From Clostridia bacterium (lineage in GTDB: Bacteria > Bacillota > Clostridia > UBA1381), in assembly GCA_045577675.1 (NCBI GenBank), contig JAZNIV010000001.1:1-63069 (forward strand): DNA of 63,069 bases, written 5' to 3'. How positions within the stretch are numbered: position 1 is the stretch's first letter; the number at the start of each line of letters is the position of its first letter. A program made the translations under genes and the position numbers. The notes under the pieces were generated by a model. That model searched no databases. It was not told the origin of the DNA and worked only from the letters and a program-made list of their open reading frames with translations. Below are positions 27,738-52,676 of the stretch, one piece after another.

Positions 27738-27738
27738 G

Positions 27739-33992: not shown

Positions 33993-33994
33993 AT

Positions 33995-34882: not shown

Positions 34883-34887
34883 TCACT

Positions 34888-36432
34888 TTATCCCCCATAT
34901 TCAGAAGGTGTACATCCTGTTATTTTTTTAAACACTTTAGAGAAATATTTTGGATCTTGATAGCCTACCATAGAGCTTATCTCCTGAATTTGATATCTTT
35001 TGCTCTTTATAAGGTCAATCGCCATGTTTACTCTGTAATTTGTAATATATCCATTTATCGTTTGTCCGGTTTCTTTTTTAAATATACGCATTAAATACGC
35101 GCAGTCCAAATGCAAATAATCAGCAATCTGTTCCACGCTTATAGATAGCGCATAATGCCGCATGATATATATTTGCGCTTCACATACATGTTTTGAATAT
35201 TTACCGGAGAATTGCGCTTCAGAATGAGAAAAAATACATTCCACAGTTTTTATCAAATAATCGCGCATTTGCGATAACATCTCCAATTTGTTTACTTCTG
35301 CAATAGGACGAGGAATTTTTCCAAAAATCCAGACCGCCTGTGCATCATCCTTTGTTGCCAGATGTATAATCTGCAAAGCAAGCTCGGAAACAAAATCCTT
35401 TAAGCTGTCAATTTCCACATATTCAAATTTTTGTATAGTTTCAAAATGTTCATTGATAATCCGATTTACCTTTTCTCTTTCAAGGTTGCGAATTCCGTTT
35501 AATACTTCCGTAATTTTTTCAGAACTCATAAAGACACCTGCACTCGTTGCTTTTTCTGTTACCTCGCCCTTTTTTCCGCTATAATAAATAACACTTCCAT
35601 AACCCTTTATTGCTTTTTGAGACACCGCAAAAAGCGATTGCATCCATGCCTCGTTTATTTTGCATAAATCTTCAAACAACCGGCTGATTCCCATAACAAT
35701 CTGTACATCAAGCTCATTGACTATGTTGTTTTTTATCTGATTAATTATTTGACATATATTGGTCTGAGTTCTGGTATTTTGACAAAATATTAAAACTGCA
35801 ATACTTTTCTTTTGTATTCTGCAAAAGAAGACATTATATTGATATGATAATCGTTTCATTAATTCATGACTTGTTCGCTCATAAATATCATACTCTTCAT
35901 CAAACTTATTAATTTTTATCTGCATTGTTATAACAAAATAAGGCTCATTACTTAGCGAAATATCATATTTATTACATAACGCATCAATAACATTTTGATC
36001 TACGTTCTCCATATTCAATATTTCATACAAAAACTGCTGAAAAATAAGCATATTGTTTTTATAAATTTGGATCTTTACCTTTTCCAACACTTTCTCGAGT
36101 TCAGCCATATTTATGGGCTTTAAAAGATACGAAAACGCTCCATTGTCCATGGCTTTTTTTATATATTCAAAATTCGGATATCCTGTTAAAATAATTATTT
36201 GTATATTAGGATTAATGGATTTTATTTCAATCAAAAATGATAAGCCGTCTTTTACTTTCATAGATATGTCAGTTATGACAACATCAGGATTAAAAATCTT
36301 AGATTTCTCTAATGCCTCCTGACCATTTCTTGCCCTTGCAACAACACAAAATCCTCTGTCTTCCCATGGAAAAAGCCTTTCAAGACCATTTAAAACAGCT
36401 ATTTCATCATCTACCAGCATTATTTTCAGCAT
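34888..36432 (-). CDS. Response regulator with an AraC-type HTH output (YesN-like)
   Basis: 514-aa ORF. Receiver domain (MLVDDE..DVVITDISM) and C-terminal AraC HTH (VEQIADYLHLDCAYLMRIFK..YQDPKYFSKVFKK). Confidence 0.9.
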   Translation of the reverse strand: MLKIMLVDDEIAVLNGLERLFPWEDRGFCVVARARNGQEALEKSKIFNPDVVITDISMKVKDGLSFLIEIKSINPNIQIIILTGYPNFEYIKKAMDNGAFSYLLKPINMAELEKVLEKVKIQIYKNNMLIFQQFLYEILNMENVDQNVIDALCNKYDISLSNEPYFVITMQIKINKFDEEYDIYERTSHELMKRLSYQYNVFFCRIQKKSIAVLIFCQNTRTQTNICQIINQIKNNIVNELDVQIVMGISRLFEDLCKINEAWMQSLFAVSQKAIKGYGSVIYYSGKKGEVTEKATSAGVFMSSEKITEVLNGIRNLEREKVNRIINEHFETIQKFEYVEIDSLKDFVSELALQIIHLATKDDAQAVWIFGKIPRPIAEVNKLEMLSQMRDYLIKTVECIFSHSEAQFSGKYSKHVCEAQIYIMRHYALSISVEQIADYLHLDCAYLMRIFKKETGQTINGYITNYRVNMAIDLIKSKRYQIQEISSMVGYQDPKYFSKVFKKITGCTPSEYGG

Positions 36433-36931: not shown

Positions 36932-37126
36932 TCAAGAAAATAAAGTACATCCTATTTCTTTATATTGCTGTATTTTTTTTATCATTGCGGTTTCCGGTAC
37001 TTGAAAATATGTTGACATACAGGAAAGACACATATATTTCTGTGCACCTCTATTAACAAGTTTTTTAAACAAAGCGATTTCATCTTTTGTAAGTGCTCTG
37101 TCGCATTTCATGCAATTATACATCAA
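36932..37126 (-). CDS. Small zinc-ribbon-like protein
   Basis: 64-aa ORF with CMKC..(25 aa)..CLSC. Overlaps the end of the GH27 gene; the start is probably the ATG at 37123. Confidence 0.55.
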   Translation of the reverse strand: MMYNCMKCDRALTKDEIALFKKLVNRGAQKYMCLSCMSTYFQVPETAMIKKIQQYKEIGCTLFS

Positions 37127-38243
37127 TCAATTTCCCTCTCAAAATATGGCAAGTATGTTCTTTGGTTTCAGCAGAATAAAAATCTCTTATTACCCCTAAT
37201 TTTTCTCCTGTAACTACATCATGCATATCAAGTCCCTTGCCTGAAGTATATGGTATTCCCAAATCAACAAACGGAATAGTTAAATGGGTTTTGGAGTCAC
37301 TGTAATTATAAAACGCAAGAACATATTCATTATCAGAAAGAATCTTGAACAAGATTCTGTTTCCCCCTGGAGCTTCAATCATTATCGGAGGTCTGCACTC
37401 CGCATCTTGATTAATTGAAATCAGTTCTTTATTCTGCATCAATTCTTTACAATACCCGTCAATTTTTCTTATATCTCCCCCCATAATAAGAGGTGCGCTA
37501 TATAGACACCATAATGAGAACTGCATAAGATATTCTTCATCGGTACATACACACTCTTCCATACCTACAAGCCCTTTTCCGTACATACCGACAGTAAGCA
37601 TGTCTATGTCATTGTAGCAACCCGGACCGGACATTGAAAAATTATTCTCCTGCTTTAAAATAATATCTTTGAATGAATTAAAATTATCAAATATATCACC
37701 TGTCGAACGATATGTATGTGCTCCTATTGAACGCATCCAGTTCCATGATTCATAATGTCCCCAATTACAAGCAGCCAATAATATTTCTCTTCCGCACGAA
37801 CGCAATGCCATGCTCATTGTAAGATATGCGTTTTTGCTGTTTCCGCATGCGGGGAAATTACAGAAATCATATTTCAAGTAATCGATTTCCCATTGCGCAA
37901 ATGTCATTGCATCCTCATATTCATGACCATAGCTTGACGGAAATCTCGCGCAGGTCAAAATTCCGGCACACGAATACATTCCGAATTTAAGTCCCTTTGA
38001 ATGAATATAATCCGCAATGTATTTCATTCCATGAGGAAATTTTTCCGGATCGGGTACAAGATGCCCATCCTTATCTCTTTGTCTTAATGCCCAACAGTCG
38101 TCAATGATTACATACTCATATCCCAACTCCTTATAGCCTTTTTCAACTATAGCATCGGCCGTTTCCATAATCAGTTTTTCGTTAATATCTTTTCCAAAGG
38201 TATTCCAAGAATTCCATCCCATAGGCGGTCTGTTTGCTAACAT
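37116..38243 (-). CDS. Alpha-galactosidase, glycoside hydrolase family 27
   Basis: 375-aa ORF. PPMGWNSWNTF, YEYVIIDDCW and IDYLKYDFC are GH27 hallmarks. Confidence 0.9.
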   Translation of the reverse strand: MLANRPPMGWNSWNTFGKDINEKLIMETADAIVEKGYKELGYEYVIIDDCWALRQRDKDGHLVPDPEKFPHGMKYIADYIHSKGLKFGMYSCAGILTCARFPSSYGHEYEDAMTFAQWEIDYLKYDFCNFPACGNSKNAYLTMSMALRSCGREILLAACNWGHYESWNWMRSIGAHTYRSTGDIFDNFNSFKDIILKQENNFSMSGPGCYNDIDMLTVGMYGKGLVGMEECVCTDEEYLMQFSLWCLYSAPLIMGGDIRKIDGYCKELMQNKELISINQDAECRPPIMIEAPGGNRILFKILSDNEYVLAFYNYSDSKTHLTIPFVDLGIPYTSGKGLDMHDVVTGEKLGVIRDFYSAETKEHTCHILRGKLIDV

Positions 38244-38462: not shown

Positions 38463-40679
38463 TTAATATATATCGCTTAAGAATCTGTCAACCACCAACT
38501 GTCTAAACTGTGGCGAGAGACTCGCAAAATATGCGGTAAAACCTGTTACACGGACCACCAAATCCGGGTATAAATCAGGATTTTCGTTTGCCGCCATAAG
38601 CTTCTCTCCGTCTAACACATTTATATTTATCAGTGTTCCGCCCTGTTTAAAGTGTCCTTCAATCAGCGACATTACGGCATTTATTCCAGCATCATCGCAT
38701 TTCACATGCGGATCGTATTCTATCTGCAGAGGCGCAGTATTTCCATATCCGCACTGCACTCCTGCAATACCGTTTGACTGTGCCGTCGGCGCTCCGTCCT
38801 GCCTGAAATGAGGATTCGGATTTGCACCGTGGGATATAGGCTCCCCATCCTTTCTGCCGTTCGGTGTCGGGCCTACAGCTTTACCATATTCTATTGTTCT
38901 CGCCCAGCTAAACCAACCCGGTATTAACTGCCTTCCTTCAGGCATTTTCTGTTGCTTAACCGTCTGCGACCATGTTTTTGTAAGTCTTACTGCCCACCTG
39001 TCGGCATCTGTTCCGCCATGACAATACTTTGGTGTGGAATTTAATATAAGACGGGTTCTTTCATCAGAAAAATTTTTGTCAAGCGCCTCATACATTTCGT
39101 CCCACGAAAGTACTTTCTCCTCCTCAACTCTGAGTTTCAACGCCGCAAATGAATCCGCAACAACCGCAAGACCAGCTCCGTCTACACCGATGGTATAAAG
39201 CTGTGCACATTGGGATATATCTTCGCCCTTTTCTATAGAGTTATTCATCATCAGATTCATTACAAGCTCAGGTGTGACCTCCCATTGATGATCAAGATGA
39301 AGATTTATCCCACAAGCTGTAACATCAACCGCCCGTTTCAAATGCTTTACAAATAATTCATACAATCTTTCGGTTGAACATTTCTCTTCGTTTCTCATTT
39401 CCTTAAGAGCAACCTCAAAAACCTTTGCTATATTTATCTTGACGGTATCATTCATAGGAAATTCCTTGCCCGGAACACACATCCAGTTGCAGCCTACAGC
39501 TATTCTTTCCCTTGCTGTTTTTTTGTCTATGCCGTTACGCATATACCCCTCTGCAAGTGCTTTATCATTACAAAATCTTGGCCATGCGTTTTTGTTTTTA
39601 ATAAGATAATATACTGCTTGGCGCAAAAATTTCTTATCACAGTTTTCATGTACTCTAACTGTCAGATTACATGATATATTTATACTGTCCGCCGCTTCCA
39701 GAATCAGATATGAGAGATGATTTGTCATATCATTGTCATTTTCATCTACGCCGGAAAGCTGATAGTAGTGCGGATCTATAAGAAGCAGATTTGCAATCAG
39801 AAATTTTGCTGTTTCGTCATCTAAAATTCCTGATTTCACATCATGTTCGTAATAAGGATACAGCAGAACATCCATTTGAAAACCCGCACCGTCACGAGTA
39901 TAAATCCTTGAAGCACAGTTAAAATATGCCGTCCATTGACAAACCTCATGGAAAGTTTTTGGTGCGCCAAACTTAATATTTTCGTTTACATCAAGCATTT
40001 TTTGAAGTGATTTTTTTATTTCCGGACGCTTTTCGTCCTTTAGCAGTCTTTTAATTTCATCAATATGTCTTTGAATAAAATCAATTATGGCAAGAACAAC
40101 CTTTTCCTCAGCGTCATAAAAATCCTTTTTATCGGGATTTATCTGCCTGTATTTTCTTATTTTTTCAAGAAATCCTCCAAATCCGAGTTCAAATCCTATT
40201 CTGTAATCGCAGGCAAAATGTGCATCACTATCAATCCCCGTCTGTATATTATATTTCTCCTGATCAGGCTTCAGCTCATCATACGGGAAACGCTGCTCAT
40301 CCCAGCGTTTGCTCCACTGTGCAGTTGAGGTGTTCATAAGCTCTGCAATTTTAGGATTCTTCTTAAGCCAATCAGGCATATAATGTAAATCTCCCCTGTA
40401 GTTTACAAGCATATCACGCCATCTTCCGCATAACATTTCCATAGAATCAACATATGCCGGATGAGCATTTATAACTCTTACAAAATTTTCACTCATACCG
40501 TCATATCCGTAAAAGCTGCCGTTTGAGCTGTTATACCATGGCTCTACTTCATAATCCTCCGGTATAGGCACTGTTCCGAAGTCATCAAGATCAGTATATC
40601 CGTTTTGTTTGCGTTTTTCCAGTGTATGACGGATTTTTGTCTTCCTCATCAGCCTCAGTCTGTCAGCGTATGAAAGCAT
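38463..40679 (-). CDS. Glycyl radical enzyme (PFL-like fold), divergent and short, substrate unknown
   Basis: 738-aa ORF. C-terminal glycyl motif VVRVTGFTAYFASLSPQF (Gly713, 38541-38543). Thiyl loop AVGCNWMCVPGKE (Cys397, 39489-39491). Confidence 0.85.
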   Translation of the reverse strand: MLSYADRLRLMRKTKIRHTLEKRKQNGYTDLDDFGTVPIPEDYEVEPWYNSSNGSFYGYDGMSENFVRVINAHPAYVDSMEMLCGRWRDMLVNYRGDLHYMPDWLKKNPKIAELMNTSTAQWSKRWDEQRFPYDELKPDQEKYNIQTGIDSDAHFACDYRIGFELGFGGFLEKIRKYRQINPDKKDFYDAEEKVVLAIIDFIQRHIDEIKRLLKDEKRPEIKKSLQKMLDVNENIKFGAPKTFHEVCQWTAYFNCASRIYTRDGAGFQMDVLLYPYYEHDVKSGILDDETAKFLIANLLLIDPHYYQLSGVDENDNDMTNHLSYLILEAADSINISCNLTVRVHENCDKKFLRQAVYYLIKNKNAWPRFCNDKALAEGYMRNGIDKKTARERIAVGCNWMCVPGKEFPMNDTVKINIAKVFEVALKEMRNEEKCSTERLYELFVKHLKRAVDVTACGINLHLDHQWEVTPELVMNLMMNNSIEKGEDISQCAQLYTIGVDGAGLAVVADSFAALKLRVEEEKVLSWDEMYEALDKNFSDERTRLILNSTPKYCHGGTDADRWAVRLTKTWSQTVKQQKMPEGRQLIPGWFSWARTIEYGKAVGPTPNGRKDGEPISHGANPNPHFRQDGAPTAQSNGIAGVQCGYGNTAPLQIEYDPHVKCDDAGINAVMSLIEGHFKQGGTLININVLDGEKLMAANENPDLYPDLVVRVTGFTAYFASLSPQFRQLVVDRFLSDIY

Positions 40680-41451
40680 ATTTTTTCAGTTCCTCCATAT
40701 ATCCCTTTGACGGAATTTCAAATTTATTGATTGTCCTTCCCAATGCAGCGCGTTTCTGCTCACCCAGCGGGTGATACGGCAAAAGCTCATATCGGACAAC
40801 ATTGTCCAATTTCTTGACAAAAGCAGATATTTCCTCAATACCCTGCTCAATCCTGGGAATAACCGGCGTTCTTATAATAACAGGTATACCCAACATACTA
40901 ACCTTTACTATGTTTTTCTTTATTTGCTCATTGCTGGCGCCGGTATATTGTCGATGTATTCTATCATCCCATATTTTCAAATCAGCCATTATGAAATCGA
41001 GATTGTTAAAAATCCCTTCATTATAGTATATCAGCGAGGTTTCTATGGCACAGCCAATGCCGTTTTCCCTGCATTTTAAAATAATTTCTTTGAGAAAATC
41101 CGCCTGCGCCAACGGTTCACCTCCTGAAAAGGTCACGCCGCCTTTACTCCCGTAATAATCTTTATCCTGCATAATCTCACTAAGTAATTCGTTCGCGTCG
41201 TATTCCTTTCCGCAAGTTACTCTTGCGCCGGAATAACAGCCTTTATCACACATATTACAGCCAATACACTTCTCTGGATAATACATAATTTCTTTTTCAA
41301 ATGATATACACTCCGGATTATGACACCATTTGCAGTTCAGCGGACAGCCTTTAAAAAATACCGTGGTTCTTACTCCGTATCCATCGTCAACCGATGACCT
41401 CTGAATATCGGCTATGAGTGCTTTACTCATAAATATATTCCTCTTTACCAC
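40663..41451 (-). CDS. Glycyl-radical-enzyme activating enzyme (radical SAM)
   Basis: 262-aa ORF. CPLNCKWCHNPE plus a ferredoxin-like insert CIGCNMCDKGC. Overlaps the GRE start by 17 nt. The likely real start is MSKAL at 41430. Confidence 0.9.
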   Translation of the reverse strand: MVKRNIFMSKALIADIQRSSVDDGYGVRTTVFFKGCPLNCKWCHNPECISFEKEIMYYPEKCIGCNMCDKGCYSGARVTCGKEYDANELLSEIMQDKDYYGSKGGVTFSGGEPLAQADFLKEIILKCRENGIGCAIETSLIYYNEGIFNNLDFIMADLKIWDDRIHRQYTGASNEQIKKNIVKVSMLGIPVIIRTPVIPRIEQGIEEISAFVKKLDNVVRYELLPYHPLGEQKRAALGRTINKFEIPSKGYMEELKKYAFIR

Positions 41452-42535
41452 TTGAAGAACTTTTTATAGCAGCATCCATAATTGCCATTATTTCCATATT
41501 CTTTTCAAGCGTAAGCATGCTGTGAACATTTTCTCCGGATCTTATACAGCTTGCAATATGCCATGGCATATTCCTATATTTATCATCCCATTTTATCTGT
41601 GGTATTGCTATCTCATTACCATACGCATCATATGCTTTGACATCCGGATCATTCTCTGCTCCGCCAGTACATACAACAACGCCTTCACTGCATATTACCA
41701 TAGGACCTGACGGTATAACAGCTCTCGGTGTTGTCCATGTTCCCTCTATAACAGACATTCTGTCGTCATATTTTACAATTGCCGCAAAATTATCCTCTGT
41801 ATCGCCAAAGGGTGTGTTTAAGTTCGCGCCATAAGACATTACACTCTTTTCACCATCTCCGAGCAACCATTTTGAAAACAGGCAACCGTAGCAGCTTATA
41901 TCAAGGAATACGCCTCCGCCGCGGGAAAGCTTATGCCACCATGTTTTTGAGCGTTGCTCATCTGTCATTTCCTCCGCATTTTCAGATACTCCCCTGTGCT
42001 TTGCGCCCTTTCCGAGAGGGCCGGTATGACCGTTTATGTACCTAAGTTTTATCGGTTTGCCGACAACGCCCGAATCCACAGCTTCTTTTAATCTGTGCAT
42101 ATACTCGCGCCATATAACAGGCCAATTAACTACTGCCTTAATACTATACTTTTGGACAGATTCCTGTATTTTCTTTGCTTCCTTATAGCTTATAGCTATC
42201 GGCTTCTCAATACACACATTCACATTCCGTTTTGCACATTCCTCAACGACCTCCGGCTTCTGCACATTTTCCGTAAGGATAAACGCAATATCCGGCTTAA
42301 GTTCGTCAAGCATTTTTTTGTAATCATCATATATATTTTTGCAATAATTGTTCTTTACATTTTCCATGTTCCAAACCGGCGTGTACCTCAAATCCGGTAT
42401 CTGCTCAACGTCTGATTTTACGTCTGCTGCACCTGCAAGCACAAAATCAGGCTGTTCGCTTATATAGAGTGCAATCTCATTTACATGCATATGTGAAAAT
42501 CCAATTATAACCGCTTTTATCATATTAATCTCCAT
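41423..42535 (-). CDS. Gfo/Idh/MocA-family NAD(P)-dependent oxidoreductase
   Basis: 370-aa ORF. N-terminal Rossmann start MIKAVIIGFSHMH and the EKP motif CIEKPIA. Confidence 0.8.
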   Translation of the reverse strand: MEINMIKAVIIGFSHMHVNEIALYISEQPDFVLAGAADVKSDVEQIPDLRYTPVWNMENVKNNYCKNIYDDYKKMLDELKPDIAFILTENVQKPEVVEECAKRNVNVCIEKPIAISYKEAKKIQESVQKYSIKAVVNWPVIWREYMHRLKEAVDSGVVGKPIKLRYINGHTGPLGKGAKHRGVSENAEEMTDEQRSKTWWHKLSRGGGVFLDISCYGCLFSKWLLGDGEKSVMSYGANLNTPFGDTEDNFAAIVKYDDRMSVIEGTWTTPRAVIPSGPMVICSEGVVVCTGGAENDPDVKAYDAYGNEIAIPQIKWDDKYRNMPWHIASCIRSGENVHSMLTLEKNMEIMAIMDAAIKSSSSGKEEYIYE

Positions 42536-42555
42536 TTTATTCTTTATATAAAACT

Positions 42556-43635
42556 CTATCGTAAATCGGCTGAGTAAACCTCTTTACCAAGTTCTGCCGA
42601 TTTATAAGCCAGCTCGATAATCTCTGCAACATTTACTGTTTCCTCCGGCTTAATATCCGGCTCTGCCTCTCCCTTTAACACTCTGCTTAAATTATCTGCT
42701 ATATAGATATGTCCCGGGAAAACAGAATCATAAGGGCACTTAACGAGCTGAAGCTGTTCTGCCCCTGTTTCTCCGTAATAAATTTTACCTTCCGGCAACT
42801 CAATACCGCTTTTGTGACTAAGCAGTCTTATATCCGATGTTTCCGGCATATTTGCCGCCCACGCAGCCTTAAAGCTTACTTTTGCACCATTTTCAAATGT
42901 AATCATTCCGCATGAAAAATCCTCAACGTCCATTTCCTTAGGATTAAATCTGCGCTGATTATGTACTTCTCCGGTTAAAGCTCCGCTGCCCTTAAGAGAA
43001 CCTATTTCATCAACAAAATTCTGCATTATCGACGCATTAACAGACTTTACCTTTGGATTTCCCATAAGCCATACAAGAGCGTCGATCATATGTACTCCTA
43101 TATCTACAAGCGCACCACCGCAACTTATTTTCTTTATGTGGAAAGTACCCCATGTAGGTATTCCTCTCCTTCTTGTTCTTGAAAGCTCCCCGTAGTAAAT
43201 ATTATCCATTCCGCCGCCGTCAATAAACTTCTTTGCTGCGAGCCGCTCAGGAGTATATCTCATGCTCTGGCATGCCATTAGAACCTTTCCGTTTTTCTCA
43301 GCATAATCAAACATCTCCTGGGCATCCTTCTTTGAAAAGGCAAGCGGCTTTTCGCACAAAACATTTGCTCCGTGCCGTAATGCTTCAAGCGTATATTCCT
43401 TATGGAAGCAATTCGGAACACACACCGATACTACCTCAGGCTTAAGTTCCTCAAGCATCCTTTGTGCATCAGTATACCAATGCTGTATATTGTGCCTTTG
43501 TGCCGTATCGCGTGCCGCATTTTCATTTACATCGCATACCCCTACTATTTCATAGTCCTCCGGAAACATTCTATATGCCGGAATATGTGCGCTGTTTGCA
43601 ATCATGCCGCAGCTTATAATACATACCTTAAACAT
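42556..43635 (-). CDS. Gfo/Idh/MocA-family NAD(P)-dependent oxidoreductase
   Basis: The track ORF extends to 43734. I prefer the ATG at 43635 (MFKVCIISCGMIANSAH), which is preceded by AAGGAGG. It has the motif CEKPLA. Confidence 0.8.
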   Translation of the reverse strand: MFKVCIISCGMIANSAHIPAYRMFPEDYEIVGVCDVNENAARDTAQRHNIQHWYTDAQRMLEELKPEVVSVCVPNCFHKEYTLEALRHGANVLCEKPLAFSKKDAQEMFDYAEKNGKVLMACQSMRYTPERLAAKKFIDGGGMDNIYYGELSRTRRRGIPTWGTFHIKKISCGGALVDIGVHMIDALVWLMGNPKVKSVNASIMQNFVDEIGSLKGSGALTGEVHNQRRFNPKEMDVEDFSCGMITFENGAKVSFKAAWAANMPETSDIRLLSHKSGIELPEGKIYYGETGAEQLQLVKCPYDSVFPGHIYIADNLSRVLKGEAEPDIKPEETVNVAEIIELAYKSAELGKEVYSADLR

Positions 43636-44386
43636 CACATACCTCCTTAAGGAAACCAAAGGTTTCTTCATCCGGCTTTGTTGCTCTGTATTCAAGTCCG
43701 ATATATCCGTCATACTGCATTTTGTTGATTTCATTTAAAATACTTACATAATCAACAATTCCTGTTCCGGGCTCGTGTCTTCCGGGAGCATCCGCAACAT
43801 GAAAATGACCTATTAATGATATATTTTTCCTTATTTGCTCAATGGAAAAATCACCTGTCATATTCTGATGGTAAATATCATAAAGCATCTTGATATTCGG
43901 GCAATCCGCTTTCCTTATAAGCTCAAATACAGGCTCTGCATAAGGCATTGAATATCCGACGCGGTCGGTGCAGTTGAGCGGTTCTATAACGAGCGTTATG
44001 TTCTGCTTCTCTATAATCGGTTTTGCCGCCTCAAGACATTTTAAAATATTTTCCTCGTTATACTCTGCATTTTCTCCTATAAGAACAATCATTGCTTTTG
44101 CGTTAAGCCTCTTATAAACCGGAATACTTTCCTCCAGTGCATTCAGAAAATCCTCTGTCCTTCCGTCATTCAATATTCCCCGCGACAAGTCAAATGACAA
44201 ACTCTCATTGCTGCTGTCAATATTGAATACTGACACATTCATGCCGCTTTGGACAATTTTGTCTATATCCTTATTTGTCCACTTCCAGAATTCTATTGTA
44301 TCTATACCGGATTTTTTCACCTTTTCCGGGCGGGCATAAAAATCACAGTATGAGAACATCATATCAATGCATACACTCAACTTCAT
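43628..44386 (-). CDS. Xylose-isomerase-like TIM-barrel protein (sugar phosphate isomerase/epimerase or hydroxypyruvate-isomerase-like)
   Basis: 252-aa ORF. IEFW, LVIEPLN, HFHVADAPGRHEPGTG and GLEY are typical metal/barrel motifs of this family. Confidence 0.75.
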   Translation of the reverse strand: MKLSVCIDMMFSYCDFYARPEKVKKSGIDTIEFWKWTNKDIDKIVQSGMNVSVFNIDSSNESLSFDLSRGILNDGRTEDFLNALEESIPVYKRLNAKAMIVLIGENAEYNEENILKCLEAAKPIIEKQNITLVIEPLNCTDRVGYSMPYAEPVFELIRKADCPNIKMLYDIYHQNMTGDFSIEQIRKNISLIGHFHVADAPGRHEPGTGIVDYVSILNEINKMQYDGYIGLEYRATKPDEETFGFLKEVCDV

Positions 44387-45665
44387 AATACTTACTCATA
44401 TCCTCATAATTAGCCTTAAGCTCATAGGTTATTTTTTGCCAATCCTCCGGAGCATTTCCCATATCGGGAATATCCAAAAGCTCACCGCCTTTTAACGCAG
44501 ACTCATGAGCCACCAGACCGGGAATCATATATCTTGCACTATCCCATGCATTATTCGGCGGTAATTTGCCCGTCATAACCGCACGCACAAAATCGTCAAC
44601 AAGAAACGGGTGAGAATTATAATGACTAAACTTTGGTGTATTTCGCATTGTCTTAGGGAGTCTGCTCCTATCCTGAATAGGTGCAAATCCCTCAATATAT
44701 TTTACTGAAATAGGATCATGAGCCATATCCATTGTTCCGTTTTTTAAATCCTCATTATATTCTATAGTGTTAACAAGCGGTCCCACATCTTCTATATACG
44801 GATTCTCTCCGCTTGCAACACCTCTTTGATATGTATGGTTTGTAACCGAGCACTCATACGCTCCTTTATCGCCATAAAAACAGGTAATATATGATGATGG
44901 CTTATTGATTCCGACCCTTCTGAATTCATTAATACGCACTACACCTCCGCCCGACATTTGAAAAAGTGCTGTTTCATTGCTGAACGGATTTGACCAGTTG
45001 TTTTTATCCTCACCATAGATATTATCCTCATGATTATCGCGTAAACCCATGCATGATACCTTTGTTGCGTACTCATTAATTGCAGAAAAAATCATAGATA
45101 TCGAATGTGTAGGGTAAAACATCGGCGGAATTCCTGCCACTCTCTGCCATTTATCTCCGCCCGAACGCTTGAAATCATCATACATCTCACATATGTCATG
45201 GTAATACTGCGACTCACCATAAACAAATCGTCCCATTTCTCCTGATTTGTATTTTTCGCGGCAATATATTGCACAGGGATAATAATAACAGGTTTCACCC
45301 ATCATATATATAAGTCTTGTCTTTTGTACAAGTTCTACAATTTCTTTTATTTCCTCAATCGTACACCCTATCGGAACAGCGCTGTAAACATTCTTCCCTC
45401 TTTTCAGTGCCTCGATAATCATTGGCCCGTGCAAATGTCTTTGAGTAAAAATCGCAATACTGTCCAGATCAGGCGCTTTGTCAAGCATTTCCTCAAAAGA
45501 AGAAAATCCCCTTTTGATACTATGTTTCTTCATTGATGCTTCTACTCTACTTTTGTCAAGATCTGCAAGAACAACCTCTTCAACATCCGGATGAATATTA
45601 AACAATCTTATAAAATCGTCCGAAAATTTTCCAATACCAACTATCCCTATCTTCATTGCTAACAA
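44364..45665 (-). CDS. Gfo/Idh/MocA-family oxidoreductase (long form)
   Basis: 433-aa ORF with the N-terminal Rossmann start MKIGIVGIGKFSDDF. Overlaps the downstream gene by 23 nt. Confidence 0.75.
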   Translation of the reverse strand: MLAMKIGIVGIGKFSDDFIRLFNIHPDVEEVVLADLDKSRVEASMKKHSIKRGFSSFEEMLDKAPDLDSIAIFTQRHLHGPMIIEALKRGKNVYSAVPIGCTIEEIKEIVELVQKTRLIYMMGETCYYYPCAIYCREKYKSGEMGRFVYGESQYYHDICEMYDDFKRSGGDKWQRVAGIPPMFYPTHSISMIFSAINEYATKVSCMGLRDNHEDNIYGEDKNNWSNPFSNETALFQMSGGGVVRINEFRRVGINKPSSYITCFYGDKGAYECSVTNHTYQRGVASGENPYIEDVGPLVNTIEYNEDLKNGTMDMAHDPISVKYIEGFAPIQDRSRLPKTMRNTPKFSHYNSHPFLVDDFVRAVMTGKLPPNNAWDSARYMIPGLVAHESALKGGELLDIPDMGNAPEDWQKITYELKANYEDMSKYYEVECMH

Positions 45666-45782
45666 CTTCCCTCTTTGCTGATATAATATAGTTTTTATAT
45701 TTTTATTATATCTTCAATATTTATTTTTTCAATGGAGAAAATAATCCATTTATTGTACAATACGCTCATACTTTTATGCAAA

Positions 45783-45819
45783 CAAAAAAACAGGACTCAA
45801 GTATTTGTCCTGTTTTTTA
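45783..45819 (-). terminator. Intrinsic terminator overlapping the 3' end of the AraC gene
   Basis: AAAAAACAGGAC / GTCCTGTTTTTT 12-bp stem with a 10-nt loop. On the minus strand it is followed by a T-run. Confidence 0.6.
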
Positions 45820-46606
45820 GCTCACCCGGAGTAATTCCTATGAAATGTTTAAACAATTTATGAAAATAGTTTATATCCGGAATATTAACTGCTTCCGCCG
45901 CTTCTCTGACATTATATTCTCCTGTTTCAATCAATGTAACCGCTTTTTTTATCCTAAGATAGTTTCTGTATGTAACAGGAGGCATACTCTTGTATCTTGC
46001 AAATAATTTTCTGAAATTACTCTCACTTGTGTTACACATTGCAGCCAACTCTGTAACTCCTATATCCTCTAAATAATGATTTTCAAGATGCACAATTCCT
46101 TTATAAATTATACTGTTTTTATTTTTTATTCTTTTATATGTTATATCGCAAAACAACCTATGCATAATCTTATAAACACCGGAAAGAACTTCAAGTTCGT
46201 ATCCCAGTTCACCTTTGTTCCATACATCAAGTAAGCCGGCAAACATCTCAAAATAAACACCATATTTGTCTTTTGCCGCAATACATATTTTATTTGGAAA
46301 TCGCACATAAAAATCGTCATGATTGAAATTAACCGATATGTATTTTCCTTTTTCTGATATATTCCATTCAGATGTATATGTTATGTCTTTAGGAAGATAC
46401 AGAATATCACCTTTTCCAGCAATAATCTGTTCCTTTGTGCCTTTATTAAAAATAATTTTCCCTGATTGCACATAGAAAAATCTTGAAAACATTTTTTCAT
46501 TCTTTCTGCATATATATGTTGATGGAGGAACAACCTCTCCAGAGTACACCCCAAATTTGTAGCTTATTGAGTCAAATTCGTTTATCTTAATTCCAAAATC
46601 ATTCAT
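45797..46606 (-). CDS. AraC-family transcriptional regulator (cupin plus HTH)
   Basis: 269-aa ORF with a C-terminal AraC HTH (VTELAAMCNTSESNFRKLFA..IPDINYFHKLFKH). Confidence 0.9.
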   Translation of the reverse strand: MNDFGIKINEFDSISYKFGVYSGEVVPPSTYICRKNEKMFSRFFYVQSGKIIFNKGTKEQIIAGKGDILYLPKDITYTSEWNISEKGKYISVNFNHDDFYVRFPNKICIAAKDKYGVYFEMFAGLLDVWNKGELGYELEVLSGVYKIMHRLFCDITYKRIKNKNSIIYKGIVHLENHYLEDIGVTELAAMCNTSESNFRKLFARYKSMPPVTYRNYLRIKKAVTLIETGEYNVREAAEAVNIPDINYFHKLFKHFIGITPGELKNRTNT

Positions 46607-46805: not shown

Positions 46806-47204
46806 TTATGCTGCAAATTTGCTCCTTCCTTTAGAAAGAATTTGTCTGCACGCAATTTCAAATTCACTAAGTTTTACAAAGTTATTCTGTCCGCCGGTAT
46901 AATCATGTGTATTTTTTGCCTCACGCACAAGAACATTGTTATACCAGTTTTTGTCATATCTCACATCACCGATACTGAAATACATACACCGGTTGTCCTC
47001 GCTGCATATAAAGCCGGAAATCTCATAATACCCTCTGATAAAAACTTTCAGCATATATCCGCTGTCCTTAAGCTGGGCATTGATTTCTGACCGTATATTT
47101 ATTGCAAATTTCACATAATCCTTTGCCGGTCTGTTCTCAATCGGTTCAAAGTTATAGTTGTGCCACTTTTCAATATTTTTTGTCTTATACATTTCTTCCT
47201 CCAT
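46806..47204 (-). CDS. Hypothetical protein (mobile element)
   Basis: 132-aa ORF. The likely start is the second Met (47192) behind GGAGG. Ends in ...SKFAA. Confidence 0.6.
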   Translation of the reverse strand: MEEEMYKTKNIEKWHNYNFEPIENRPAKDYVKFAINIRSEINAQLKDSGYMLKVFIRGYYEISGFICSEDNRCMYFSIGDVRYDKNWYNNVLVREAKNTHDYTGGQNNFVKLSEFEIACRQILSKGRSKFAA

Positions 47205-48012
47205 TCTTTACATACCACTCATCAAGTATTTTCCACAGCATTGTTTCACACTGTTTCAATGTGTATTCTTTTGGGAAATAACCCTTGAGCCGTTTTTGGT
47301 TTATCGAAATATTCTTTTCCTTTACAGTCTCATCAAGAATTTGATGCAGTGCCACTGTGTCCAGCCTTTCATTCTCCGCCAGTTCGCGTATGCTGTGCGC
47401 TTGTTTGTAGTTCACCGTACATTCCTCCGCTTCAATATGGTTATTTACCATATACTGCGGTCGAATCTTCAAAAAGGACAGCTCAACGCCGCCGGTTAGG
47501 GATATGATTTTTTTATCCACCTTATCAAGGAGCTGAAAAATCAAATTTGTCAGTCTGATATATCTGCGCGCATTTCTGCCGCTTATATCGTTTTGTATTC
47601 CCAATTCCTCCTCGCTCCACTTCTGGACATCATGTCCGGAAGTGCGCTGCCCCTGATGCTTAAGTGCCTCATATTTCAATCGATAAGCGTAGGCTTTTTC
47701 GCTCGGCAGAAGATTTTCTCTTTGTATATTGCTGTCCACAAGCAAAATTGCCGCTTCATCATCATCCAGCCGATACACAAATGCCGGTATCTCATCAAGT
47801 CCGGCAAGCTCGCACGCGCGTTTTCGCCTATGCCCCGATATGATTTCATACTTTCCGTTTTCTATCGGACGCACTAAAATGGGTATCAGCACACCATACT
47901 TTCCGATACTGTCCGCAAGCTCATACATTTCCTCATCATCGCATACATGATACGGATGTTCGGAAAAGCCCTCCAGCTTACCTATTTTTATTAATTCCGC
48001 TTTCTTATCCAT
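47185..48012 (-). CDS. ParB-like N-terminal-domain (nuclease/partition) protein
   Basis: The track ORF extends to 48048. I prefer the ATG at 48012 (MDKKAELIKIG), preceded by GGAGG. ParB box GHRRKRACELAG. Confidence 0.8.
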   Translation of the reverse strand: MDKKAELIKIGKLEGFSEHPYHVCDDEEMYELADSIGKYGVLIPILVRPIENGKYEIISGHRRKRACELAGLDEIPAFVYRLDDDEAAILLVDSNIQRENLLPSEKAYAYRLKYEALKHQGQRTSGHDVQKWSEEELGIQNDISGRNARRYIRLTNLIFQLLDKVDKKIISLTGGVELSFLKIRPQYMVNNHIEAEECTVNYKQAHSIRELAENERLDTVALHQILDETVKEKNISINQKRLKGYFPKEYTLKQCETMLWKILDEWYVKNGGRNV

Positions 48013-48081
48013 TACTACCTCCAAATATACGCAGCAAGAGGACACCAAACGGTATCCTCTTGCTGTAAATTCAAGACTTTT

Positions 48082-49062
48082 TTACGCCGCCAAACCATAA
48101 AGCTTCGAGCCCTGCACATTCAATTTCAGCTGGTCTCGCATACCCTCAAGCAGCGTAAAGTTTTCGTCTATTCCTGATAAATTCTGTTTTAAAAGACTTT
48201 CGTACTCTTTCTTTTTCCTCTGCAGTTCTTCGATTTTCAGCGACCAGCGGTCCAGTATACGCTGTGAGCTGTTACCGTTTCGTATGAGCCTTGAAATATT
48301 TTTCTGATATTCCTCAATCTCGCGGCCCATATCAAAATAGAACTCATGCGCCATTTTCTTCCTCTGTGTTTCATCGTCAGCTACATACATCGAATTTGAG
48401 CTGATATATTTTGCATTTCTGCCATCCGCATAAACAAACAGATTTTCCTTTGCCAGCAGTTCAAAAAAGGTTTCAAGAAGGTCTATCTTATGCATATAGT
48501 CCTTTGGCACAAAATAGTGATGGCCTTTGGCTGAAATGCTGATTGCATGCAGTGACGCCATATACTTTTCAACCATATTTTCAATGCTGCTGTTGGAAAC
48601 GCAATCACGATAAAGGGAAAAACGATTGTTTGCCTCATCAAAATATTGAATAACCCTGCTGTCACGGCAAAGGTCATAACCTGAAAGCTGCATTATACCC
48701 ATTTCCTTATCAAGCGTAATATTAGCAAGCTTTCGGTAATTATTTGTACTGTTCATCAGTGTTTCTTCAACAAGTTCGCGCGACAGAATATTGTTGTCAC
48801 CGCGTTTGTTATCGCGGCAATAAATTTTGAGCACTTCATTTCCCTCCTGCTCAATCCTGTCATAAATATTGCTTGTTGCACTTTTGAACGCGTCCGTGAT
48901 CGACCCTTTTTCTGAGACACTAACGGGGAATCCTATCTGTTCGCATATTTCCTTTACTCTTTCCGTTTTCACAATAAGTCTTGGGAAAGAATAATACATA
49001 TACTTTCCCATAATCTCCGACTGCTGACCGTTCTCTGTGTTAATAATCATAAATTTAGACAT
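48082..49062 (-). CDS. Hypothetical protein with a C-terminal coiled coil (mobile element)
   Basis: 326-aa ORF, ends in ...LYGLAA. No motif recognised. Confidence 0.6.
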   Translation of the reverse strand: MSKFMIINTENGQQSEIMGKYMYYSFPRLIVKTERVKEICEQIGFPVSVSEKGSITDAFKSATSNIYDRIEQEGNEVLKIYCRDNKRGDNNILSRELVEETLMNSTNNYRKLANITLDKEMGIMQLSGYDLCRDSRVIQYFDEANNRFSLYRDCVSNSSIENMVEKYMASLHAISISAKGHHYFVPKDYMHKIDLLETFFELLAKENLFVYADGRNAKYISSNSMYVADDETQRKKMAHEFYFDMGREIEEYQKNISRLIRNGNSSQRILDRWSLKIEELQRKKKEYESLLKQNLSGIDENFTLLEGMRDQLKLNVQGSKLYGLAA

Positions 49063-49081
49063 ATGTTTTCTCCTCTCAAAT

Positions 49082-50143
49082 CTATGCTGCTCTTAGCCGC
49101 AGTTTTTTTGCAGCCATATAGTCGTCTATGCCGTTATAGCGCGGGTTCCAGTTATATTCTGTATACTCCACACCCATATCAGCAAGACAATCTTTTATTC
49201 TTTCGACAGCAGCTTGTACATTTACGTTTTTTCGTTTATCCATATCAAGAACAAGATTTACCCTTTTAATATCCATATCAGATATCGTTCCGGCAAGGTG
49301 GTCTACTGCATTCACTCCGGGAACTGCAAGAAACAGCTTGCCGCCTGACAGCACACTTGAAATATCGCCTTTCATCGGTCCCTCAGTCAGATATGCTGTT
49401 TTTGAAGATGTGTCTCCGACAACATGAACCCAGCTTTTTACACCTGTTCCTCCCGGATAACCGTTGGTCGAAAACCAGCGAAATTTCTTACCTTCGCCGC
49501 TTGCCGGATCGAGCCGAACCTGCAAGCCTTGAATGTACCCATCCTTATCGCACACCGGTATCAGGATTCCGCCGTATTTGTTGATATACATTTTCCGGCA
49601 GCCGTCTTTATCCCGGTAAAAGCCCGGGATACCGTCAAGATCGTGCTTTTTTTCCAGCTCCTTTATCACCCTTTCCCGATATACGGACTCCATCGGCATA
49701 CTTTTATACATAAACCTATAGATCTCGTTAAAGGTCAGTCCCCTGTTAATAAGATTGTTATAGTGTTTGGGATGAAGTTTTAACATATTTAATAGGTCAT
49801 AATAAACATTGTGCCGCTCTTTAAGACTTCTTATCGGTTTTTCAGGTTCCGGACAGACAGCAGGTATCGGCTCGTCATTATAAAGCCGCTTTAAAGTTTC
49901 ATAAGTCTCTTTATTACTCAGTCCGTAAATCTTGGCATAAAGCGAAACGCTGTTGCCCTTTTCATTACACCGAAAGCAGTGGAACTGCTCCTTTGCTCGA
50001 TTGAGTCCGAGATGGTATTTGCTGTCGCCGCAGAAGGGGCATCTCGCCTTAAACTCTGCACTGCGGCTTTCATACTGATACAGCTTTATACCGCAGCGCT
50101 TCGCAACCTCAATAATATCAAAGCTCATATATTCACACATCAT
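49082..50143 (-). CDS. DNA primase-like protein (CHC2 zinc finger plus Toprim-like domain)
   Basis: 353-aa ORF. CPFCGDSKYHLGLNRAKEQFHCFRCNEKGN aligns with the DnaG zinc finger. Toprim-like TEGPMKGD and VLDMDK. ATGA overlap with the upstream gene. Confidence 0.8.
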   Translation of the reverse strand: MMCEYMSFDIIEVAKRCGIKLYQYESRSAEFKARCPFCGDSKYHLGLNRAKEQFHCFRCNEKGNSVSLYAKIYGLSNKETYETLKRLYNDEPIPAVCPEPEKPIRSLKERHNVYYDLLNMLKLHPKHYNNLINRGLTFNEIYRFMYKSMPMESVYRERVIKELEKKHDLDGIPGFYRDKDGCRKMYINKYGGILIPVCDKDGYIQGLQVRLDPASGEGKKFRWFSTNGYPGGTGVKSWVHVVGDTSSKTAYLTEGPMKGDISSVLSGGKLFLAVPGVNAVDHLAGTISDMDIKRVNLVLDMDKRKNVNVQAAVERIKDCLADMGVEYTEYNWNPRYNGIDDYMAAKKLRLRAA

Positions 50144-51861
50144 GCTGCCTCCTTCATCTGCTGTCCGGTTTTTGCCTGCACAGTCAGCGGCATACGTTTT
50201 GCAAATGCAAGTATGACTTGATTGGACATAGCATCAAGACCTGCTGTGATACTCTCTGCATTATCTATGTAGGTCGGATAACAAAGGCCGGTGAGGTTCT
50301 GTAAAAGCTTAGACACCTCCAGTCCCGCCTTGATTTTCTCTGAGTTTGATATCCAGCGATAGTCCTTGCCGTCATAGGTGAAACGGAACGTATCCTTGAT
50401 TTCGCCCGTGGATTTAACCACCTCAAAAAGCCGTATTGCCGCGTGATTCATTTTGAGCTTTGACAAGGTGATTTCGGCACGTTTTGCTTCATACTCCTGC
50501 AATGCAGCAATGATTTTTTGAAGCCCGGAAATCTGTTCAAAAAGCGCTGTATGCTGATTCTCCAACTTTTCAATCGTCTGCATTTCCTTCTCCGTATTGC
50601 ACATAGCCTCAACTTTCGCAGAATAAATTTCTATCTGCTTTTGCAGTTCTGAAAGTTCTTTGTACTCTTGTTCGGAAAGATTTCCACGGCTGATTTTGCT
50701 GTCTTGTGCGTCTGCATTTTTCAAACTGTCGATCTCTGACTGAACTTTTTTAATATCGTCCGCCTTATACTTCTCAAAAACAGCCATGCTCTGCCTATCC
50801 ATTTCTTCAAGCTTTCTGACAGCTTCTCTGGCAAGCTGTCCCTCCTCCCGCACTGCAAGAACGTCTTTTTTGAACGCAGCGATTATCTCCCTGATATTAT
50901 CCTCGGTAATCACTGTACGGCAGGTAGGACATACTTTGCCCACCTTGAGATTTGCAGCCTGTGCCTCGTATGATTTATATTTCTGCGCCAGAACATTGAG
51001 CTCCGTTTTTGCCTTCATAAGCTCTTTTGTGTACTTTGACTCATAGCCTTTTGCCTTTATCTCGGCAAGCTTTTGATAAAGCTCCTGTATTTGGAAAGCG
51101 TTTCCGGTCTGGGGTTTTGCTTTCATCGCTTCTATATCAATTCCCCGGTACTGTTTTTCCTCCAGTTCATTTTTACGGTTTACAAGACTTTCAAATTCCT
51201 TGATAACGGAGTCAATAGTATTCTCCGCCTCTGAAAACCGTTTTTTGAGTGCGTCTATCTGCCCTTCCAGATGAAGTGCATTTTCATTCAGCTCACGAAT
51301 TTCTCTCCGCTTATCCTTTATACACACTTCAGGTTCGGCAAAATCCTCCGCCTCCAGCAAAGTTTTAGAGATTTCACTCAAGCGGTCAAGTATCTCATTT
51401 TTCGGAATACCCGGCATGAGTTTTTGCAGAAATTCTTTTCCGTCGCCCGCCAGCTTTTCAATAAAATACAATGGGTTAAGAATTGACAGAAAGACATTTT
51501 TCTCCGCAAACACCGATGCCATATCCACCTGACGCATACTGTGCCCGTCAAGCATCGCTGATGACTCGGAGCCTGATTTTGTACGCAAAAGATTGTGTAC
51601 CTCTCCGTTTTCATCGGCAAAACACACCTCGACCGACATTTTATCAGCATTTGGATTTTTCAGCCTGTCACATGAATTCTCACCCCAAAAGGGTGTTCCG
51701 CAGAATGCAAAGCTTATCGCGTCGGCAATAGTAGTCTTTCCTTCGCCGTTTGCGCCTATAATATATGTCACCTTATTCATATCCGCTTCATATGGCTCTA
51801 AAAAACGTTTGAAACCCTCCATTTTCACTTTTAAAATAGTAATTTCTTTAATTTTGTCCAT
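50140..51861 (-). CDS. Rad50/SbcC-like AAA ATPase with a coiled coil and a CxxC hook
   Basis: The track ORF extends to 51891. The likely start is MDKIKEITILKV (51861) behind GAGGAGG. Walker A GANGEGKTT, mid-coil VCPTCRTV and C-terminal YIDNAES. Confidence 0.75.
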   Translation of the reverse strand: MDKIKEITILKVKMEGFKRFLEPYEADMNKVTYIIGANGEGKTTIADAISFAFCGTPFWGENSCDRLKNPNADKMSVEVCFADENGEVHNLLRTKSGSESSAMLDGHSMRQVDMASVFAEKNVFLSILNPLYFIEKLAGDGKEFLQKLMPGIPKNEILDRLSEISKTLLEAEDFAEPEVCIKDKRREIRELNENALHLEGQIDALKKRFSEAENTIDSVIKEFESLVNRKNELEEKQYRGIDIEAMKAKPQTGNAFQIQELYQKLAEIKAKGYESKYTKELMKAKTELNVLAQKYKSYEAQAANLKVGKVCPTCRTVITEDNIREIIAAFKKDVLAVREEGQLAREAVRKLEEMDRQSMAVFEKYKADDIKKVQSEIDSLKNADAQDSKISRGNLSEQEYKELSELQKQIEIYSAKVEAMCNTEKEMQTIEKLENQHTALFEQISGLQKIIAALQEYEAKRAEITLSKLKMNHAAIRLFEVVKSTGEIKDTFRFTYDGKDYRWISNSEKIKAGLEVSKLLQNLTGLCYPTYIDNAESITAGLDAMSNQVILAFAKRMPLTVQAKTGQQMKEAA

Positions 51862-51896
51862 AAGCTTCCTCCTCTTAAAATATGATTGCACCGTTA

Positions 51897-52667: not shown

Positions 52668-52676
52668 AATTTCCTC

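Follow-up and report, generated by a model that had tools for sequence, protein, structure and literature searches.

A Cys-x-Trp lineage of glycyl radical enzymes encoded with Gfo/Idh/MocA proteins in gut Clostridia

What can be expected of a glycyl radical enzyme (GRE) that lacks the loop glutamate of the eliminases and is encoded among dehydrogenases of the Gfo/Idh/MocA fold? Such an enzyme is specified by a 63,069-nucleotide (nt) stretch of a Clostridia bacterium genome (assembly GCA_045577675.1, contig JAZNIV010000001.1), referred to here as the window. Its gene is the last of a seven-gene cassette on the minus strand (38463–46606; Table 1), in which an AraC-family regulator is followed by a first Gfo/Idh/MocA protein (Gfo1), a xylose-isomerase-like TIM barrel, two further Gfo/Idh/MocA proteins (Gfo2 and Gfo3), a radical SAM activase and the GRE. 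GREs, which are sensitive to oxygen, open chemically difficult substrates to gut anaerobes, and every assignment of a new class (CutC, HypD, IslA, YbiW/PflD) has brought to light a pathway relevant to the diet or to the host. The original prediction, made from the DNA sequence, described the enzyme as an orphan and proposed a keto-sugar or keto-cyclitol, made by the dehydrogenases, as its substrate. All of the open reading frames (ORFs) that it listed were re-found in place on the minus strand, and the identities of all seven genes are backed by Pfam and NCBIfam profile searches. We consider it very probable that the cassette encodes a functional, uncharacterized GRE system linked to carbohydrates or cyclitols.

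Profile searches, alignments and modeling place the protein in the GRE superfamily. The C-terminus of the 738-amino acid (aa) protein reads VVRVTGFTAYFASLSPQFRQLVVDR and contains Gly713 within the RVxG fingerprint, here VRVTG(713)F, as had been noticed from the sequence; Pfam models PF02901 (E=1.1e-92) and PF01228 (E=1.6e-12) both match. Cys397 aligns with the catalytic cysteine of glycerol dehydratase (GDH; C433), PflD and PFL2. The AlphaFold 2 (AF2) model, with a pLDDT of 92.3 and a pTM of 0.92, has the ten-stranded β/α barrel of the superfamily, and Foldseek aligned it to more than 40 GRE chains, eliminases and isomerases among them, with TM-scores of 0.78–0.84. The gene for the activase overlaps the start of the GRE gene, as predicted, the overlap being 17 nt; its product carries CPLNCKWCHNPE (a CX3CX2C motif) together with CIGCNMCDKGC and scores 253 bits against a TIGR02494 cut-off of 174 bits, as a cognate activase should. 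This activase is short (255–262 aa) and CIGCNMCDKGC is its single CX2CX2CX3C auxiliary-cluster motif; most non-PFL GRE activases have two such motifs.

The Cys loop sets the enzyme apart. In alignments to glycerol dehydratase and PflD, Trp399 falls on the CXE motif's glutamate (GDH E435), and the loop (GCNW) holds a single cysteine at its tip with no adjacent Cys-Cys pair; alignment to PFL2 agrees, so that the reading of this loop in the original prediction stands. The sequence C397-N-W399 therefore lacks the C-x-E motif of the GRE 1,2-eliminases and isomerases (GD, PD, HypD, CutC, IslA, HpsG, HplG, YbiW and PflD), in which the Glu forms a hydrogen bond to the substrate hydroxyl and deprotonates it. 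According to a GRE review of June 2026, all C-O, C-N and C-S eliminases and three isomerases (HplG, YbiW and PflD) keep CXE, the Cys-Cys pair is unique to pyruvate formate-lyase (PFL) and TdcE and essential there, and decarboxylases use other arrangements; a C-x-W enzyme is not mentioned in it. Other elements of the active site are familiar: His154 and Asp411 align with GDH His164 and Asp447, and both are conserved. Positions aligned with the GDH pocket appear to be aromatic or polar, with PGWFSW near GDH Tyr640 and RDGAGFQ near GDH His281/Ser282, and no Arg cluster like that of the sulfonate-binding GREs was seen at the pocket positions in the alignment. A further cysteine, Cys401 (39477–39479), lies four residues past the putative thiyl-radical Cys (GCNWMC). 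It is present in all close members examined (79–100% identity), is replaced by Ala, Ser, Asn or Gly in relatives at 36–53% identity and is again Cys in three relatives at ~30% identity (P0160, P0161 and P0206).

No characterized class accommodates the protein. It falls below every NCBIfam cut-off, including that of the broad PFL2/glycerol-dehydratase subfamily TIGR01774 (264.9 vs 678.2 bits), and its equivalog scores are all at or below 212 bits against cut-offs of at least 1000. The best solved relatives by profile are PflD (428 bits) and glycerol dehydratase (423 bits), and the best single-sequence match in the PDB is the glycerol dehydratase 1r8w (E=6.7e-51); in the Foldseek comparison, identity to all solved GREs is 18–22%, with none clearly nearest. 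Membership among PFL, TdcE, the decarboxylases or the succinate synthases was rejected on motif, scores and genomic context. No curated NCBIfam model (June 2026) describes the family, and literature searches, including bioRxiv from 2023, found no paper on it or on a GRE coupled to Gfo/Idh/MocA proteins. The placement outside the characterized classes, on which the original prediction depended, was thus upheld.

The enzyme is nevertheless no orphan, as it had been called. When 5.8 billion proteins were searched, more than 120 homologues emerged at 79–100% identity, under no other names than “formate acetyltransferase” or “PFL family protein”; among them is that of a cultured species, Qingrenia yutianensis (assembly GCA_014385105.1), which has the complete cassette. 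With each species represented by one genome, 71 loci with a GRE at 64–82% identity were detected, all in Clostridia (Oscillospiraceae, Lachnospiraceae, Acutalibacteraceae, Ructibacterium, Faecalimonas, Tyzzerella, Acetatifactor) and originating from the guts of ruminants, deer, rabbits, chickens and humans (Hadza, Nepal) and from digesters. Close homologues measure 735–746 aa; the shortness of the protein, correctly remarked upon earlier, is a family trait rather than a truncation.

The loop itself reaches well beyond this family. When 50%-identity clusters, 1.84 billion in number, were surveyed by their representatives, every full-length relative at 36–53% identity read GC[N/H]W, and a further set at ~30% reads GC[F/Q/H/G/P]W; CXE sequences start at ~30% identity. 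In a neighbor-joining tree, the 24 C-x-W proteins form one pure clade among the 88 nearest full-length representatives. Across 33 clade members with identities as low as 24%, Cys397, Trp399, Asp411 and Gly713 do not vary; Glu406, a residue not common to GDH or PflD in the alignments, is nearly invariant among them as well. No member of the clade scores above any NCBIfam model cut-off. The C-x-W clade is a distinct, uncharacterized GRE lineage.

The genes that stay with the GRE were identified by calling and clustering ORFs in all loci, with either the 66 loci that contain the GRE or the 51 with at least 5 kb of upstream sequence as denominator. The activase adjoins the GRE in 62/66 loci, Gfo3 lies directly upstream of the activase in 56/66, and a Gfo2-like cluster is represented in 48/66. 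Family hidden Markov models applied to the 51 loci found at least one Gfo-fold gene in 49, a Gfo of the type with an HxH loop (Gfo3 or its paralogues) in 48 and a DgpA-like Gfo, the type to which Gfo2 belongs, in 42; Gfo3 is the sole Gfo-fold gene near the GRE in eight. The TIM barrel and Gfo1 recur in only 16 and 15 of the 66 loci, respectively (shares also stated as about 30%), and the AraC regulator of the window type in 9, other layouts using other AraC paralogues that are usually divergently transcribed. The conserved core thus consists of the activase, the GRE and the HxH-type Gfo3, with a DgpA-like Gfo almost always present, while Gfo1 plus the TIM barrel, or alternative Gfo pairs, are exchangeable upstream “feeder” modules under AraC control. 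Accordingly, the proposal that dehydrogenase genes are conserved with the GRE across genomes proved correct for Gfo3 and the DgpA-like Gfo, though not for the full set of three Gfo proteins and a barrel.

Three layouts account for these patterns: (A) the window type, in the order AraC, Gfo1, TIM barrel, Gfo2, Gfo3, activase, GRE; (B) the commonest, with AraC in divergent orientation, a further two Gfo proteins, a Gfo2-like protein, Gfo3, the activase and the GRE, after which a PF12831 flavoprotein is often encoded; and (C) AraC, a Gfo2-like protein, an HxH-type Gfo, activase and GRE. Four loci (L009, L011, L035 and L037) fuse the upstream modules of A and B before one GRE, and in single genomes two cassettes can occur with different upstream dehydrogenase modules (L017/L021 in Tyzzerella sp. 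RGIG4201, L029/L033 and L013/L064). The arrangement reads as a constant lower module (HxH-type Gfo, activase and GRE) fed by interchangeable dehydrogenase modules, and points to several feeder routes that converge on one radical step. Flanking genes are heterogeneous, comprising GH30 and GH2/35-like proteins, kinases and housekeeping genes.

The partner proteins indicate what kind of substrate may be delivered. Gfo2 matches the pyranoside 3-dehydrogenase DgpA over its full length (7xr9, E=1.6e-51, residues 2–347 of 358; DgpA1 9m3d, E=1e-49) and far exceeds its match to inositol dehydrogenase (IDH; E=1.5e-15). It has the Pfam Gfo/Idh/MocA N, C and C3 domains and is 32% identical to DgpA over 364 aa, with cluster members in other cassettes reaching 48%, all of which marks it as a DgpA-type homologue. 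The DgpB/DgpC lyase partner was found neither as a match of the TIM barrel nor elsewhere in the cassettes. The PDB matches of Gfo1 are weak and at the level of the Rossmann fold (best 1.7e-12), and include the GH109 NAD-dependent glycosidases.

Gfo3 is the more unusual protein. Its dinucleotide loop has an invariant G-x-x-H-x-H in place of GxGxxG, and the invariant residues comprise G8, H11, H13, EKP106–108, the GHTGPLGKGAKH loop and GGG..D208..C211-Y212-G213. In the profile search of the PDB, the top match reaches only 2.7e-13 and leaves the N-terminal loop outside it. An AF2 model built from database homologues (pLDDT 88) shows the Gfo fold, with TM_0425, 1,5-anhydrofructose reductase, GFOR and DgpA2 about equally close (13–18% identity); the best single-sequence PDB match is TM_0414 and the top structural neighbor TM_0425, both of Thermotoga. 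Three paralogous Gfo families (Gfo3 and clusters c4 and c13, in L009–L074) have exchanged GxGxxG for an invariant (G/S)-x-x-H-x-H and share D-x-x-C-Y-G in the catalytic region, and no characterized or solved protein is close to them.

The 252-aa barrel was correctly recognized as xylose-isomerase-like (PF01261). Its best NCBIfam scores, for hydroxypyruvate isomerase (148 bits) and 2-oxo-tetronate isomerase (121 bits), are both below cut-off, and its PDB matches are 3ngf, YgbM, tagatose 3-epimerase, YcjR and TM_0416. A role equivalent to DgpB/C or IolE was rejected, given no DgpB/C match in the PDB search and an IolE score of 26 bits against a cut-off of 290. Taken together, the superfamily and the mode of activation are familiar; the Cys-loop chemistry, the partner set and the putative substrate are not.

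Neighbors of the more distant C-x-W enzymes extend this view. A relative at 45% identity (GCNW) is encoded with a Gfo2-like protein (39%), a Gfo3-like protein (32%), a small cupin and an activase, beside CUT1 permeases, a LacI regulator and a PF12831 flavoprotein. A 50% relative has no Gfo and lies beside an RbsB-like monosaccharide ABC transporter and a NagC/Mlc-type ROK regulator, and one at ~30% (GCFWY) beside a SIS-domain protein, a CUT1 sugar ABC transporter and two URO-D family genes. A 42% relative (GCHW) abuts a URO-D gene; a 53% relative lies beside the housekeeping PfkA (6-phosphofructokinase), which is uninformative. Sugar import and sugar regulators thus recur beside distant relatives, which supports a carbohydrate-type substrate for the clade and would suit a ring-stacking role of Trp399. 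MtaA-like URO-D family genes flank distant C-x-W GREs in two separate branches (L080, 4861–10624, and the P0125 contig), in one case together with the CUT1 sugar ABC transporter and the SIS-domain protein, and may hint at methylated-sugar chemistry.

Because dehydrogenase genes stay with the GRE (49/51 loci), the idea that it acts on a keto-sugar or keto-cyclitol made by them is reasonable. We tentatively propose, in more specific terms and by analogy with known GREs, a radical C-O cleavage on a neutral keto- or anhydro-pyranose prepared by the sugar-type NAD(P) dehydrogenases, as a step in its anaerobic catabolism, such a pyranose being the most likely type of substrate and a cyclitol a less likely one. 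In this scheme, the DgpA-like enzyme and the feeder enzymes would oxidize a ring hydroxyl of a sugar, a glycoside-derived sugar or an anhydro-sugar to a ketone. The activase would install the radical on Gly713, from which the Cys397 thiyl radical would be formed, and the latter would take a hydrogen from the carbinol carbon beside the ketone. The resulting captodatively stabilized ketyl/semidione radical may be acidic enough to dispense with the usual Glu base, with Trp399 perhaps serving as a stacking platform for the substrate ring. Expulsion of the beta C-O substituent by a spin-centre shift would then either open the ring ether, a reaction known from YbiW and PflD with anhydrohexitol phosphates, or remove a hydroxyl. 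Return of the hydrogen atom from Cys397 would give a deoxy-keto product, which Gfo3 would reduce or oxidize towards central metabolism.

Several points weigh against this proposal. Its chemistry rests on analogy, and the CXE Glu, replaced by Trp here, serves in all characterized GREs that break C-O, C-N or C-S bonds; the missing Glu could mean another reaction, such as C-C cleavage or formation, or a decarboxylation. The roles suggested for Trp399, Asp411 and His154 come from alignment only. The altered dinucleotide loop of Gfo3 casts doubt on its presumed function as a dehydrogenase. Sugars and cyclitols are not separated by the structural neighbors of Gfo3, since these include both 1,5-anhydrofructose reductase and proteins of the Thermotoga inositol cluster. 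Finally, in the close-family loci the cassette has no conserved companion gene for a transporter, a kinase or an aldolase.

Comparison with the nearest characterized GREs shows how far the analogy carries. YbiW and PflD, the ring-opening isomerases of 1,5-anhydroglucitol-6-phosphate and 1,5-anhydromannitol-6-phosphate in “anhydroglycolysis”, are gut-bacterial GREs that act on a pyranose-type ring, as is proposed here, and likewise have an adjacent activase, and PflD is both the best PDB profile match and among the top structural matches (TM 0.84). However, identity to them is 18–21%, and their CXE Glu, which deprotonates the C2-OH, is Trp in the enzyme described here. Their substrates are phosphorylated by a phosphotransferase system (PTS) and passed to aldolases, whereas the present cassette has no PTS, kinase or aldolase but Gfo/Idh/MocA proteins, and no phosphate-binding Arg cluster was seen at the aligned pocket positions. 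The B12-independent glycerol and 1,2-propanediol dehydratases share the fold (TM 0.82) and the His164 and Asp447 counterparts and provide the best match, 1r8w. They differ in that Glu435 is replaced by Trp399 and the Ser282/His281 region by Gly-Ala-Gly, in that the present GRE is ~50 residues shorter on the N-terminal side and fails TIGR01774, and in that neither microcompartment nor aldehyde dehydrogenase genes lie near this GRE.

Among the alternatives, a cyclitol pathway is the strongest, though we regard it as unlikely. Stereospecific Gfo dehydrogenases and the TIM isomerase would turn inositol isomers and methyl- or deoxy-inositols into a common inosose, which the GRE would dehydrate, relieve of an ether substituent or open at the ring, in place of IolE/IolD. 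In the known inositol networks (IolG/X/W/I), several Gfo paralogues and a xylose-isomerase-like barrel converge on one lower module; the architecture of the cassette resembles these networks, and its modular feeder layout fits them. The weak matches of the TIM barrel to IolO and TM_0416, the proximity of Gfo3 to TM_0414 in sequence and TM_0425 in structure, and the hosts, herbivores whose diets are rich in cyclitols, point in the same direction. The scores do not: the cassette proteins remain far under the IolG, IolE and IolO cut-offs (86.9 vs 355, 26 vs 290 and 71 vs 300 bits), homologues of IolB, IolC, IolD or IolJ do not recur near the cassettes, and the best-characterized relative of the partner dehydrogenase is DgpA, not IDH. 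The known inositol routes, moreover, already run anaerobically with no radical step, and literature searches found no link between GREs and inositol or inosose. More generally, combinations of several Gfo/Idh/MocA proteins with a TIM-barrel isomerase or epimerase are found in LgdA/B/C, BT2158/2159, YcjS/R, IolG/E/I and Thermotoga IolG/M/O, and the cassette proteins do match the levoglucosan dehydrogenase, BT_2158/2159, IolG and IolO models weakly, all far under the curated cut-offs. These oxidative 3-keto-glycoside, levoglucosan and inositol pathways differ from the present system in that none has a radical enzyme, and the TIM barrel is optional here.

Less probable still is a radical substitute for DgpBC, in which the DgpA-like enzyme would make a 3-keto-C-glycoside or another hydrolysis-resistant glycoside and GRE cleavage would free the aglycone. 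The comparison is invited by the DgpA–DgpBC system of C-glycoside cleavage in gut Lachnospiraceae: the Gfo2 cluster is 32–48% identical to DgpA over its full length, the hosts are gut Clostridia, and genomes carry several paralogous dehydrogenases, as reported for Catenibacillus. In place of the DgpB/C lyase, however, the operon encodes a GRE, an activase and an HxH-type Gfo. The frequency of DgpA homologues (42/51 cassettes), the lack of a DgpB/C-type lyase in cassettes whose TIM barrel is itself absent from most loci, and the non-conservation of sugar-assimilation genes, which deglycosylation would predict, would all fit such a substitution, and herbivore and high-fibre diets are rich in flavone C-glycosides. 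Yet DgpBC chemistry is already anaerobic, no plausible radical route from a 3-keto-C-glycoside to the aglycone could be written, and the presence of Gfo-less relatives beside monosaccharide-type ABC transporters is more suggestive of free sugars than of polyphenol glycosides. Literature searches turned up no connection of GREs to dgp genes.

The two remaining explanations are far weaker. That the cassette belongs to an α-galactoside or galactinol locus, with the GH27 gene feeding it, is very improbable: this gene does follow the GRE closely on the same strand, as had been described, but none of the 74 other loci has a GH27 homologue, the flanks are heterogeneous and the gap in front of the gene holds GH27’s own promoter-like sites, so that the galactosyl-cyclitol idea of the original prediction is not supported. 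An ordinary pyruvate or 2-ketobutyrate formate-lyase, as the database names of the homologues and the Pfam PFL-like domain would have it, is scarcely credible for a protein that scores 81 against 994 bits with TIGR01255, lacks the essential Cys-Cys pair, counts PFL among its weakest PDB matches and is encoded beside sugar dehydrogenases rather than pta, ack or focA.

A bolder and more doubtful extension of the proposed C-O cleavage is that the C-x-W clade constitutes a new mechanistic class of GREs for carbohydrate rings, in which an invariant Trp replaces Glu, the ketone installed by the partner makes the radical self-activating and Gfo3 is an obligatory partner. Gut Clostridia could in that case open or deoxygenate hydrolysis-resistant sugars (anhydro-, C-glycoside-derived, ether-linked or methylated). 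A monophyletic lineage that departs from the C-x-E rule is present in at least 70 Clostridia species of ruminant, rabbit, bird and high-fibre human guts. Solving its function would give radical enzymology a new reaction type or substrate class, would correct several hundred “formate acetyltransferase” misannotations, would assign an unstudied Gfo/Idh/MocA subfamily and could explain the use of a plant-derived, sugar-like compound by fibre-adapted microbiota. Q. yutianensis, cultured and with a complete cassette, offers an experimental handle.

The genes of the cassette are tightly packed (Table 1). Overlaps amount to 23 nt between Gfo1 and the TIM barrel, 8 nt between the TIM barrel and Gfo2, and 8 or 29 nt between Gfo3 and the activase, depending on the start chosen. 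The predicted sizes of the three Gfo proteins were recovered (433, 359 and 370, or 366, aa), but Gfo2 and Gfo3 do not overlap as had been stated, being separated by 20–32 nt. Ribosome-binding sites (RBS) and the N-termini of orthologues favor the shorter starts for Gfo2, Gfo3 and the activase: for Gfo2, an AAGGAGG RBS and the orthologues agree on 43635, and the activase probably begins at ATG 41430, where the RBS is good and from which the product has the length of the 255-aa Qingrenia orthologue. A promoter-like site (46741–46712) and a terminator-like hairpin (46797–46763) precede AraC, a promoter-like site scoring 11/12 precedes Gfo1 (45732–45705), and strong sites of this kind stand before AraC and GH27 as well. 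The coding strand shows no terminator-like site from Gfo1 to the GRE stop. Overall, these scans did not exceed chance (46 promoter-like sites against an expectation of 41±7.5).

Table 1. Features of the GRE cassette and the adjoining GH27 gene (positions in the window)
Feature	Coordinates	Strand	Remarks
AraC-family regulator, 269 aa	45797..46606	-	HTH_18 and HTH_AraC domains; first gene of the cassette
Gfo1, 433 aa, Gfo/Idh/MocA fold	44364..45665	-	Pfam match to the N-terminal Rossmann domain only
Xylose-isomerase-like TIM barrel, 252 aa, Hyi/OtnI-like	43628..44386	-	PF01261 E=2.5e-30
Gfo2, DgpA-like pyranoside 3-dehydrogenase homologue, 359 aa from Met34	42556..43635	-	Full-length DgpA match
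Gfo3, divergent Gfo/Idh/MocA protein, GxxHxH for GxGxxG	41423..42523	-	366 aa from 42523; ORF of 370 aa
Radical SAM GRE activase, 255 aa	40663..41430	-	Radical_SAM and Fer4_12; ORF up to GTG 41451 (262 aa)
GRE, C-x-W clade, 738 aa	38463..40679	-	Pfam PFL-like E=1.1e-92; Gly_radical E=1.6e-12
Cys loop VGC(397)NW(399)	39483..39497	-	Cys397 codon 39489-39491; putative thiyl-radical Cys, aligned to GDH C433
Gly loop VRVTG(713)FTAYF	38526..38555	-	Gly713 codon 38541-38543; putative glycyl radical site
GH27 alpha-galactosidase-like gene	37116..38243	-	Melibiase_2 E=9e-72; start 219 nt past the GRE stop

Directly upstream of AraC lies a mobile-element-like block (46806–59610) encoding ParB_N, DUF6744, a CHC2 primase with DUF3854, an AAA ATPase and a DUF6094 methyltransferase, followed by an IS256-type (Transposase_mut) transposase. 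The GC content of the cassette (0.39–0.41) is higher than that of the 32–38 kb flank (0.31–0.33), and the GRE is 72–82% identical across several families of Clostridia. The mobile-like block, the higher GC content and the level of identity across families together suggest that the cassette has spread horizontally.

Elsewhere in the window, a module at 23769–32119 has counterparts next to the GRE cassettes of roughly five further loci (L009, L022, L026, L060 and L061). It comprises an AraC regulator, a 343-aa protein without a family match, three QueG/reductive-dehalogenase-like Fe-S proteins, a YgjV membrane protein, a DUF5696/GH101-like protein and a radical SAM/SPASM maturase similar to “tungsten cofactor oxidoreductase maturase”, with a score (262 bits) short of the cut-off, and may serve the same substrate family as the GRE cassette. 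Downstream of GH27 (32247–36432), a sensor histidine kinase, a 295-aa protein without a family match and a response regulator with an AraC output domain form a trio that is typical of sugar sensing and is not conserved with the cassette. At 1557–18098, five very large ORFs (937–1232 aa) lie beside a CUT1 ABC transporter; two have no Pfam match, two carry SLH domains and one combines a GH5-like domain with CBM9.

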